Positions 46,570 through 52,275 of a stretch of DNA of 64,000 bases are shown here, piece after piece. This DNA is from Pelagomonas calceolata (Eukaryota). Within the stretch, counting starts at the first letter, position 1; every line of letters starts with the position of its first letter. A program made the position numbers and the translations under genes. The stretch is taken from NCBI GenBank assembly GCA_918797485.1, contig CAKKNE010000006.1, forward strand, positions 2,976,001-3,040,000. Reading direction: 5' to 3'. Below the pieces are notes generated by a model that searched no databases, had not been told where the DNA came from, and saw only the letters and a list, made by a program, of their open reading frames with translations.

Positions 46570-49500
46570 TCACTTCTGATGCTCCTCGAGGAGCGCGACG
46601 ATGTCTGAATGATCTTCATTTTCCGCATCCGCCAAGGGCGTGTCGCCGTCTTCGTCCTCGCGGCCGATATCAGCAGCAGCGCCATTCGCCAACAACAGCC
46701 GAACGACGTCTATGTTGCCACTGCATGAGGCTGCGTGAAGTGGCGTTCGATCGTCGTTCGAGGCCTTGTGCACGTCGGCGCCTTTATCTAACAACAGCCG
46801 CGCCGCGTCGACTTGGCCCTCCTCGCAGGCGATGTACAGCGGCGTCGCGCCGTCCTTGTCCGCCCGGTGGACCTCCGCGCCGTTGTCCAGCAGCAGCCGC
46901 GCCGCGTCGACGTGGCTGTTCTTACAGGCGATGTACAGCGGCGTCGCGCCGTCCTTGTCCGCCCGGTCGACCTCCGCGCCGTTGTCCAGCAGCAGCCGCG
47001 CCGCGTCGACGTGGCTGTTCTTACAGGCGACGTACAGCGGCGTCGCACCGTCCTCGTCCGCCCGGTCGACCTCCGCGCCTTTATCTAACAACAGCAGCGC
47101 CGCATCGGCGCGGCCGTTCTCGCAGGCGGCGTACAGCGGCGTCGCCCCGTCCTCCGTCACCCGGTCGACCGCCGCGCCGTTATCTAACAACAGCCGCGCC
47201 GCGTCGACTTGGCCGTGCCGGCAGGCGACGTACAGCGGCGTCATACCGTCCCTGTCCGCCCGATCGATCTCCGCGCATTTATCCACCAACAGCCGCGCCG
47301 CGTCGACGCGACCGTTCTGGCAGGCGGCGTACAGCGGCGTCTGACCGTTCTCCGTAGCCTGATTAACGTCCACGCCTTTTTCCAGCAGCAGCCGCGCCAC
47401 GTCGACGCGACCGTTCTGGCAGGCGGCGTACAGCGGCGTCTGACCGTTCTCCGTAGCCTGATTAACGTCCACGCCTTTTTCCAGCAACAGCCGCGCCACG
47501 TCGACGTGTCCAAGGGCACACGCAATTCCAAACGGCGACCAATCGCCCTCAAGCCTCTTGTCGACCGCGGCACCAGTATCAAGTAGCAAGCGCGCGGCGT
47601 CTACGTGCCCTTTCGAACTCGCGACGAACAGTGGCGTATAGCCGTCATCATCTTCCTGGTCGACGCCAGCACCCTGCTGAAGGAGAACGCACATTGCGTC
47701 GACATCTCCCTGATAGCATGCTAGGGTGAGTGGAGTCGTGCCGCTCTCGATGCGCAACTCCCCCCACCGGTTCCCGAAAGCCACGAAGAGCCCGCTCATG
47801 CCGCTCCTGACCGCCAAGTCCATCACGAAACCATCAAGAGCAACCACCCGCAGCGCCGCACCGCCCTTGCTCGCGTCCCACACCCGCACAGTCTTGTCCT
47901 CCGACCCGCTCGCGAGCCGCATCTCGCCCGTCGCCGGGTCCGCGAAGGCCGTCAGCACGTTCACATCGTCCGTGTGACCCCAAAACACGAACAGCGCCGC
48001 GCCGCCCGCGGCCAAGTCCCAGACGCGCACAGAACAGTCGTTCGATCCGCTCGCGAGGCGAAGCGCGCCCGTCGCCGGGTCTTTGAAAACAATCAACGCA
48101 TTCACGGTGTCCATATGCCCCTCGAGCACGACCAATGCCTTGCCGCCCACGACCGGGTCGAAAACGCGCACCTTCCCGTCTTTACAGCCACAAGCTATTC
48201 GCAATTCACCAGTCGCCGGGTCCGTGAAGACCGTCAGCGCGTGCACCTCCGAGCCAACGTCGATCACGACTAGCGCTTTCCCACCAGCGAGCGGGTTGAA
48301 GACGCGCACGTCGCCAACATAGTCGCATCTTGCGGAGACGTATTTGCTCGTGCCACATGCAAGCCGCGGCGCGCCCGTCGCCGGGTCCACGAAGAACGCC
48401 AGCGCATACGTCTCCAAGCCAACGTCGAGTACAAGCAGCGCCTCGCCTCCCGCAACCGGGTCGAAGACACGCACGTCACCGTTTCTCCGAAAGCCTGTTC
48501 CACAAGCGAGCCGCGGCGCGCCCGTCGCCGGGTCCACAAAGGACACCAGCGCCAACACCTTCGAGCCGACGTCTATCACGAGCAGCGCACCACCAGTGTC
48601 CGCGTCCCACACGCGAATCCCATCACTGGACCCGGTCGCAACCCGCAACGCACCCGTCGCCGGATCTGTAAAGGTCACCAGGGCTTTCACATTCTCAGAG
48701 TGCCCCTCGGCCCCCGCCTCAATCGCCGCGCCGCCCGCCGCTGGGTTCCAGACTCGCACGGTGCTGTCATACGATCCGCTCACAAGCCGCGGCTCGCCCG
48801 TCGCCGGGTCCGTGAAGGCTGTCAAAGCCCTTACCCAGTCTGCATGCCCCTCGAGCACGACCAGCGCCTCACCGCCCGCGACCGGGTCGAAGACGCGCAC
48901 CTTGTTGTCGTAAGACCCGCTCGCGAGCCGTGGTGCACCCGTTGCAAGGTCCTCAAATGCGACCAGTGCAGCCACCTCAGATCCAATGTCGAGCACGAGC
49001 AGCGCGTCGCCGCCACAAACCGCGTCGAAGACGCGCACCTTCCCATCCCAAGAGCTGCACGCGAGCCTCGGCGCGCCCGTCGCTGGTTCCTTGATGAGCG
49101 CCAGTGCATGCACGTTAGAACCAATGTCTAGTACGAGCAGCGCGTCACCGCCGGCGACCGGGTCGAAGACAAGCACCTTCTCTCCCGACGCGCACGCGAG
49201 CCGCGGCGCGCCCGTCGCCGGGTCCGTAAAGACCGCCAGTGCTTTCACTTTAGAGCCGACTTCGAGCACAAGCAGCGCCGCACCGCCCGTGGCCGGGTCG
49301 AAGACGCACACCTTTCCAGTAGGTCCTGGGTCTGAGCCTGAGTCTGAGTCTGAGTCTGAGTCTGAGTCTGAGTCTTTAATAGTCACTCCACAAGCAAGCC
49401 GCGGCTCACCCGTCGCCGGATCTTTGAAGACCGCCAGCTGACCACGTCCATCGATCACAAGCAGCGCCTCGCCGCCCGCAACCGGGTCATAGATGTCTAT

Positions 49501-52275: not shown

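Follow-up and report, generated by a model that had tools for sequence, protein, structure and literature searches.

Several described systems join enzymes of the RelA/SpoT family, or other enzymatic effectors, to a receptor or a delivery apparatus. Fungal nucleotide-binding leucine-rich repeat (NLR) proteins include members with an N-terminal RelA_SpoT domain, a NACHT domain, and WD40 or other repeats, in which RelA_SpoT is proposed to be the direct effector (PMC4986451, PMC12258605, PMC10197012), and effectors are reported to be swapped between similar NACHT cores (PMC4986451). Bacterial bNACHT proteins have a tripartite layout with the effector at the N-terminus (bioRxiv 10.1101/2022.07.19.500537). 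Among alarmone synthetases of bacteria and phages are Tas1/Apk1, a type VI secretion system effector of Pseudomonas (PDB 6OX6), Apk2, a MuF-fused phage protein, and the exported alarmone synthetases (EAS) SaEAS and VpEAS (PMC10083569, PMC12691689), with Apk1 homologues differing in product specificity (PMC12691689). Plastid RelA/SpoT homologues (RSH) of diatoms and other red-lineage algae are long enzymes with hydrolase-like domains, and NACHT does not occur in the paper describing them (PMC6881373). In this study, we analyzed a stretch of 64,000 nts from Pelagomonas calceolata (GenBank assembly GCA_918797485.1, contig CAKKNE010000006.1, positions 2,976,001 to 3,040,000), hereafter called the window, to which all positions below refer. 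A single open reading frame (ORF) on its minus strand (46570..52275) encodes an NLR-like protein in which a module resembling RelA/SpoT synthetases is inserted within helical domain 1 (HD1) of the NACHT scaffold.

A module inserted in helical domain 1

The ORF runs from ATG to stop without interruption and combines a NACHT core of the STAND class (signal transduction ATPases with numerous domains), the nested synthetase module, a WD40-like array, and an ankyrin array in 1901 aa. An earlier note on this DNA had described a single ORF with an MGGGVSS start, Walker A and B motifs, and a series of nucleotidyltransferase motifs, all of which lie where it had placed them; its length of 1933 aa, which conflicts with its own coordinates, had to be corrected. 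Membership in the NLR-like NACHT scaffold was borne out by the nucleotide-binding domain (NBD; aa 75-283, 51427..52053, on the minus strand like all features of the gene), which matches the NACHT-type Pfam family NPHP3_N at aa 90-253 (E 2.7e-23, 83.4 bits versus a cut-off of 24.8) and AAA_16 (E 2.3e-6). Other features of NACHT/STAND proteins are also present, namely intact Walker A (GGGGTGKS, aa 116-123, 51907-51930) and Walker B (LVIDALDE, from aa 215, 51610-51633) motifs, an HD1/winged-helix region that is split by the insert, and C-terminal repeats. The first HD1 helix (NRQDVRAYLTVLAKEHV, 51397..51450; DVRAYL starting at aa 280, 51438), which was identified by alignment to the module-free NACHT proteins P0226-P0230 and is a helix in the structural model, stands directly before the insertion. 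Beyond the insertion lie the rest of HD1 (ALDAAVGALERKADGLMLYA) and the winged-helix region (aa 534-760, 49996..50676; KADGLMLYA starting at aa 544, 50646), which were assigned by local hidden Markov model matches in module-free NACHT proteins and by structural alignments to STAND/AAA+ chains.

Spacing across the insertion site was counted over all collected proteins with both halves, and it amounts to 259-327 aa in 38 module-bearing relatives (a redundant set) versus 22-30 aa in five module-free ones, where the DIxxYL helix runs straight into the helix ending in KSEGxFLY. Because the Pelagomonas ORF itself has a spacing of 259 aa, the insert measures about 235 aa (aa 298-531, 50683..51384), with borders that are defined by both module-free NACHT proteins and non-NACHT hosts. 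The insertion proposed by the earlier note therefore stands, and its estimate of about 250 aa is slightly too large. A search with the NBD returned 19 relatives at E<=1e-15; the insert is present in the 14 closest of them (42-95% identity) and absent from the five most distant (32-37%). These results confirm that a module of about 235 aa splits HD1 of an NLR-like scaffold.

A model of 781 residues (mean predicted local distance difference test, pLDDT, 67.7; predicted template modelling score, pTM, 0.38) fits a NACHT that would fold across the insert. In its alignment to model residues 13-505, the STAND protein Avs3 uses chain residues 257-502 only (Z 12.7, root-mean-square deviation (rmsd) 5.4, 228 pairs), and structural alignments to STAND/AAA+ chains likewise carry on past the insert. 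The idea of a discontinuous NACHT is thus in keeping with the Avs3 alignment, whereas domain packing in a model of this pTM is unreliable.

Sequence, fold, and catalytic residues of the module

The module consists of a helical stalk (aa 298-360), a RelA/SpoT-fold synthetase core with predicted Tas1/Apk-like pyrophosphokinase activity (aa 361-510, 50746..51195), and a closing helix (aa 511-531); the domain had previously been expected at aa ~390-560, correct as to its presence but not its range. The ordered motifs KGRPRSLQK, DLSR, GYRD, and EFQ start at aa 396, 418, 460, and 481, respectively, and the RelA/SpoT likeness read from them was upheld by both sequence and structure. When the insert was searched against the PDB as a single sequence, Tas1 was matched with an E value of 3.5e-7, and profile searches placed Tas1/Apk1 first (E 2.4e-10 and 4.7e-11), followed by YwaC/SAS2 of B. 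subtilis (2e-8 and 3.5e-5), with no CapRel-type chains among the sequence-profile matches in the PDB at E<=1. Tas1 also took rank 1 in Foldseek. The module modelled alone has a pLDDT of 94.9 and a pTM of 0.87, and the top 11 of the 48,161 chains compared with it are RSH synthetases (Z 8.0-14.2), with other nucleotidyltransferase folds at Z<=7. Z scores are 14.2 for SAS2 (rmsd 5.2, 157 aligned residues), 14.0 for RelP (3.1, 146), 13.3 for SAS1, 13.1 for Tas1 (4.1, 148), and 12.1 for CapRel, and identity in the structural alignments is 31% to Tas1, 19-21% to the SAS enzymes, and 13% to CapRel.

The Pfam RelA_SpoT match that the earlier note had predicted for the insert was not obtained: the insert alone gave no family at E<=0.1, the gathering threshold of PF04607 was not reached, and NCBIfam, PADLOC, and PHROGs yielded no family for the module. 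Since just six of 62 aligned members of the module family match PF04607 at E<=0.01, the family is in effect unannotated, and the miss shows divergence from the PF04607 model with the fold still present. The ESM Atlas contributed one cluster at 0.95 and, at 0.76, two clusters rich in eukaryotes, none with a functional name.

The core residues are K396, R400, K404, D418, R421, K450, G460-Y461, D463, N465, E481, Q483, H497, and Y500. With the published list of Apk1 residues (PMC12691689) and an offset of 21 residues between chain and protein numbering that was deduced from lengths of 439 and 460, R421, N465, E481, and Q483 correspond to Apk1 R330, N370, E382, and the Gln two residues further on; the equivalent of Apk1 K353 is ambiguous in the alignment and is probably K450. 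K396, K404, D418, R421, and E481 are kept in 35 of 38 aligned modules, which were taken from 52 with sufficient flank after near-duplicates had been dropped. When the module was compared with six metagenomic loci, of which two are near saturation, the ratio of nonsynonymous to synonymous substitution rates (dN/dS) came to 0.16-0.22, which indicates purifying selection. The 60-residue stalk falls outside the region aligned to Tas1 and the SAS enzymes, yet it is common to the eukaryotic modules. Judged by sequence and predicted fold, the insert is a RelA/SpoT synthetase-fold module closest by sequence to the (p)ppApp toxin Tas1/Apk1; its type is that of the Tas1/Apk toxins and not that of the plastid RSH enzymes.

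Distribution, module types, and other host proteins

A search for the same architecture in other algae, as suggested by the earlier note, was successful. The nested NACHT form was found in Pelagomonas (including P0007, a complete MMETSP transcript product), in Prymnesium parvum (40%), and in the diatom Proboscia alata, so that it recurs in pelagophytes, haptophytes, and a diatom; a partial module match was also found in Aureococcus. The closest named relatives are proteins of Pelagomonas calceolata with 89% identity over the insert. An assembly chimera was ruled out, as NACHT, module, WD, and ankyrin parts co-occur in the independent proteins P0006, P0008, and P0004 (the last with partial ankyrin); module, WD, and ankyrin also stand together in another locus (L002).

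By their modules, nine full-length Pelagomonas-like copies divide into two types (A and B), with module identities of 83-94% within and 59-66% between types, and their NBD and HD1/winged-helix flanks are 81-95% identical whatever the module type. The synonymous divergence (dS) between types is about 2 in the module versus 0.53 in the downstream flank, and the divergence begins near aa 300-315 and stops near aa 525-540. A syntenic locus (L022) has the same downstream flank and SDR gene as the window, the other module type, and no ankyrin match. These comparisons indicate that module types were exchanged between near-identical scaffolds, a pattern that either exchange of the module or gene conversion of the flanks would give. 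Both sensor arrays named in the earlier note, WD40 and ankyrin, are present by Pfam; sensor arrays differ between copies, however, and with L022 lacking an ankyrin match the pair is variable and not essential.

A profile search collected 4,805 clusters at E<=0.001, the best 150 of which were analyzed. Both NACHT flanks were recognized in 12 of the 141 new clusters among these best 150, the NBD only in 18, the HD1 side only in 15, and neither in 96; many of the 141 are fragments. The module is evidently not special to this gene and, by its sequence relatives, belongs to a wide protist family found in several other host proteins. P0177 of the choanoflagellate Didymoeca costata (EukProt, complete transcript) is a G-alpha protein with the module at aa 84-360; the stretch before the module matches G-alpha residues 38-101 weakly (12.5 bits), and the one after it matches residues 144-360. 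P0177 is thus a candidate for a G protein that contains its own second-messenger enzyme. The module of P0177 sits in the helical domain of G-alpha and has intact catalytic residues. Elsewhere the module follows Rab-like and Rho-like GTPase parts, whose N-terminal GTPase part matches Rab/Rho structures; the C-terminal remainder of these small-GTPase hosts was assigned by eye from known motifs, and nesting there is only half shown. Other hosts include EF-hand, ion-channel, E2/ubiquitin-like, leucine-rich repeat, and ankyrin proteins of dinoflagellates and further protists. In P0190, P0164, P0197, P0192, P0158, and P0161, the module comes after a Rab/Rho-like part, is flanked by an ion-channel domain and an EF-hand, or accompanies an E2 enzyme and a ubiquitin-like stretch. 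A quick tree was built without near-duplicate rows and domains covering <72% of the profile. Most modules of non-NACHT hosts group together in it (SH-aLRT 97), the NACHT-hosted modules form no single clade, and with 40 of 99 inner branches open the backbone is unresolved; we therefore propose neither a donor nor a sequence of events.

We also examined viral and prokaryotic sequences. The sole phage match by tblastn came from two records of one phage among 50,697, Bordetella phage PHB04, in which gp034-gp032 (L042:3071-5336) comprise an unannotated RelA_SpoT gene next to the portal, a 69-aa ORF, and an HD hydrolase. By analogy with Apk2-Tis1-Aph1, this trio is likely an Apk2-like toxin-immunity-hydrolase cluster (PMC10083569). 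A pattern search of IMG/VR viral contigs gave 22 pattern matches and no confirmed relatives, and Foldseek matches among viral models are mostly phage proteins. The BFVD model A0A7D3R1N1 of Fadolivirus, a giant virus, which is named nucleotidyltransferase RelA/SpoT, is a weak fold match (E 9.5e-4, 12% identity). One match was obtained in prokaryotic genomes (L001:28-807), on a contig in an alphaproteobacterial metagenome-assembled genome; it shares 92% identity with the type-B module of the alga and is therefore probably eukaryotic DNA in the bin, and gene transfer was not accepted.

Transcription, N-terminus, and genomic surroundings

Three polyA runs, each sampled to about 6%, yielded 778, 675, and 488 reads that were placed on the window, mostly in the orientation expected of a minus-strand transcript; the family is transcribed at a low level. 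No splice joint occurs among the listed reads over the window, with low depth over the insert. A zero-difference contig, whose status as RNA is a guess, spans 50563-50910 and bridges the C-terminal border of the insert, and the N-terminal border is bridged by none of the listed contigs. A retained intron was ruled out by the open frame, the dN/dS of about 0.2, and the presence of the module in the transcript-derived relatives P0007 and P0131. The description of the gene as intronless is thus sustained by its frame and relatives, and its own reads, at this depth, test it weakly.

The predicted N-myristoylation-like start MGGGVSS (aa 1 on, 52255..52275) is of a conserved type, in agreement with the earlier note: starts of the MG-x-x-x-S/T type occur in 20 of 44 related N-termini (a redundant set) with several differing sequences. 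Five further related N-termini have RGG followed by G-x-x-x-S. In P0011-P0015, including Prymnesium, RGG ends a ubiquitin-like stretch and G-x-x-x-S follows, which suggests that cleavage after RGG may expose a myristoylation site in these proteins; P0012 has a precomputed PF03372 match.

Downstream of the winged helix, an HD2-like arm (aa 761-850, 49726..49995) is mostly helical in the model at low confidence, with APAF1_C matches in the relatives P0011 and P0223. It is followed by the WD40-like array (47761..49725; Pfam WD40 E 4e-29), with DPATG repeats and about 13-14 blades that likely form two propellers, and by the ankyrin array (46573..47760), in which a 33-aa unit (99-bp period) recurs about 12 times (11 stretches matched by Pfam Ank). 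A linker of Asp-Ser dipeptide repeats within the WD40 array (49321-49381) is absent from the paralogues P0003 and P0008. The neighbouring genes, scanned with Pfam, encode Sof1/WD40, SDR, DnaJ, and Sir2 proteins. No immunity gene or HD hydrolase was matched within the 64-kb window, Pfam detected no PAAR or MuF delivery domain in the ORF, and no PADLOC family matched the ORF protein. Just downstream of the gene, a 299-bp sequence occurs as two identical direct copies (45584-45882 and 45908-46206) separated by 25 bp; the block of about 630 bp containing them is missing at L022, is partly covered by RNA reads, and is possibly a small long terminal repeat-like insertion or a recent duplication.

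Proposed mechanism and alternative explanations

STAND proteins are kept in a closed, ADP-bound state that opens upon ligand binding, whereby the NBD and HD1 turn as one body relative to the winged helix, the arm, and the sensor, and oligomerisation follows. We see about an even chance that the Pelagomonas protein is an NLR-like STAND receptor with a Tas1/Apk-type synthetase in HD1, whose sensing likely switches on an enzyme that transfers pyrophosphate from ATP to a purine nucleotide with a defence output. The repeats would hold the receptor closed until ligand binding and nucleotide exchange move the NBD-HD1 unit; this movement would release the active site of the module, or cluster modules at the membrane via the myristoylated N-terminus. 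The released enzyme would then pyrophosphorylate a purine nucleotide, most likely ADP or ATP, and the predicted outcome is ATP drain, growth arrest, or death of the attacked cell. If the enzyme is active, (p)ppApp or a mixed product would carry about half of the likelihood, and the remainder would be shared equally by (p)ppGpp only and by RNA or another acceptor; (p)ppApp and ATP drain are favoured because of the likeness to Tas1. Membrane anchoring, activation-dependent nucleotide synthesis, and an immune or stress role are each plausible predictions.

A number of results weigh against this defence receptor. Read depth over the insert is sparse (0-6.6), and about half of the placed reads continue unlike the window, so that paralogues or another strain contribute to them. 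Ordinary signalling, and not killing, is what the sister clade of modules hosted by G-alpha, Rab/Rho-like, EF-hand, and channel proteins suggests. Catalytic residues are lost in three of the 38 aligned homologues, and the 781-residue model, at a pTM of 0.38, is no reliable guide to domain packing or to any occlusion of the active site. The fold (Z 12.1-14.2, with SAS2 at the top) fails to separate Tas1 from (p)ppGpp-making SAS or tRNA-modifying CapRel, and since it does not choose among RSH enzymes, the affinity to Tas1 rests on sequence identity. The Apk1 homologues, moreover, include (p)ppGpp-only and mixed enzymes (PMC12691689).

Four other explanations were weighed against the same data. 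The NACHT protein may be one of several switch proteins whose active, non-toxic synthetase makes low levels of (p)ppNpp, a signal that downstream receptors would read during stress or development and not in cell death. Such a second messenger is favoured by the SH-aLRT support of 97 in the quick tree for a sister clade whose hosts are G-alpha, Rab/Rho-like, EF-hand, ion-channel, and E2/ubiquitin-like proteins, by the absence of an immunity gene or HD hydrolase match in the 64-kb window, and by transcripts present without known challenge; it nevertheless seems rather unlikely, given that toxins are both the closest characterized sequence and the closest gene cluster in phages and that the A/B dimorphism and the variable sensor arrays fit conflict genes. 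Pyrophosphorylation of tRNA 3' ends or another macromolecule, comparable to CapRel, FaRel2, and PhRel, could instead stop translation when the receptor fires. The Z score of CapRel lies within about 1 of that of Tas1, and the 60-aa stalk, outside the region aligned to Tas1 and the SAS enzymes, could bind a macromolecule; but in the PDB profile searches Tas1 appears at 1e-10 to 1e-11 and no CapRel-type chain at E<=1, and with an identity of 13% to CapRel versus 31% to Tas1 we hold this target to be improbable.

Plant NLRs carry integrated decoys, and the module might likewise lure a pathogen protein directed against alarmone synthetases, with binding tripping the NACHT switch and the output lying elsewhere. 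Recognition specificity would be expected to produce what is seen here, namely two types that diverged long ago (dS about 2, compared with 0.53 for the flank) and segregate in one scaffold, with one of the types at the syntenic locus. A decoy is still quite improbable, since catalytic residues are kept across hosts that are 25-45% identical and the protein already has two sensor arrays and no other effector domain recognizable by Pfam. The least credible explanation is a tolerated passenger, that is, a mobile domain with close N- and C-termini that inserts in frame into many proteins without serving the host. Internal positions with similar borders in unrelated proteins and some degenerate copies speak for it, but the same site is filled in all 14 closest of the 19 NACHT relatives, down to 42% NBD identity, in pelagophytes, haptophytes, and others, the module has a dN/dS of about 0.2, and no intein-type terminal residues were seen on inspection of the alignment.

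Compared with the defence receptor, a broader proposal is held more tentatively, as a possibility that is rather doubtful at present: marine protists may use a toxin-derived plug-in module to connect various switches to (p)ppApp-type chemistry, both in NLR sensor-killers with exchangeable cassettes and in cytosolic alarmone signalling via G-alpha, small GTPases, and calcium sensors. Alarmone synthesis in eukaryotes is known mainly from plastid RSH enzymes. If active and switch-gated, the Pelagomonas protein would be a candidate self-contained immune effector for algae, in an abundant phytoplankton organism; it would also extend (p)ppApp chemistry to the eukaryotic cytosol and be a case of an NLR effector built into the centre of the switch and not attached at the N-terminus.

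Comparison with known systems

Like the algal protein, the fungal RelA_SpoT NLRs join NACHT and repeats to a RelA/SpoT-family domain. The fungal domain, however, is N-terminal and detected by Pfam PF04607, whereas the algal one lies inside HD1 (aa 298-531), is missed by Pfam, and has a 60-aa stalk; the algal protein begins with a myristoylation-like peptide, and the host organisms comprise algae and other protists. With its RelA/SpoT-like domain in an internal position, the algal protein falls outside the fungal RelA_SpoT-NACHT architecture. No report of a nested RelA/SpoT-in-NACHT form was found in a literature search that stopped short of subscription journals and supplementary domain tables. 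The arrangement of two module types in one scaffold does resemble the effector swaps tabulated for the fungal NLRs (PMC4986451).

Tas1/Apk1 shares with the module the best sequence match, the fold, the NDYxGD, DLxR, GYxxxN, and ExQ motifs, and four of five listed ATP-binding residues. The Tas1, Apk, and EAS proteins are bacterial or phage-encoded and are exported or controlled by immunity proteins, whereas the algal protein is eukaryotic, has its synthetase built into a STAND switch, and shows no signal peptide. It is outside Apk1/Apk2 as defined by a delivery domain and a Tis1-like immunity gene, neither of which is present in the ORF or the scanned neighbours. RelP/SAS2, RelQ/SAS1, and the toxSAS CapRel have the same fold (Z 12.1-14.2), but they are 13-21% identical to the module and, unlike it, stand alone; compared with the small alarmone synthetases, the module has DLSR in place of DxxG and Asn in place of the His of GYRSxH. 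Unlike the plastid RSH enzymes, the algal NLR-like protein has neither a hydrolase domain nor an evident plastid leader. The bNACHT and Avs STAND systems resemble it in that a STAND switch links a repeat sensor to an enzymatic effector, and they differ from it in the site at which the effector is placed.

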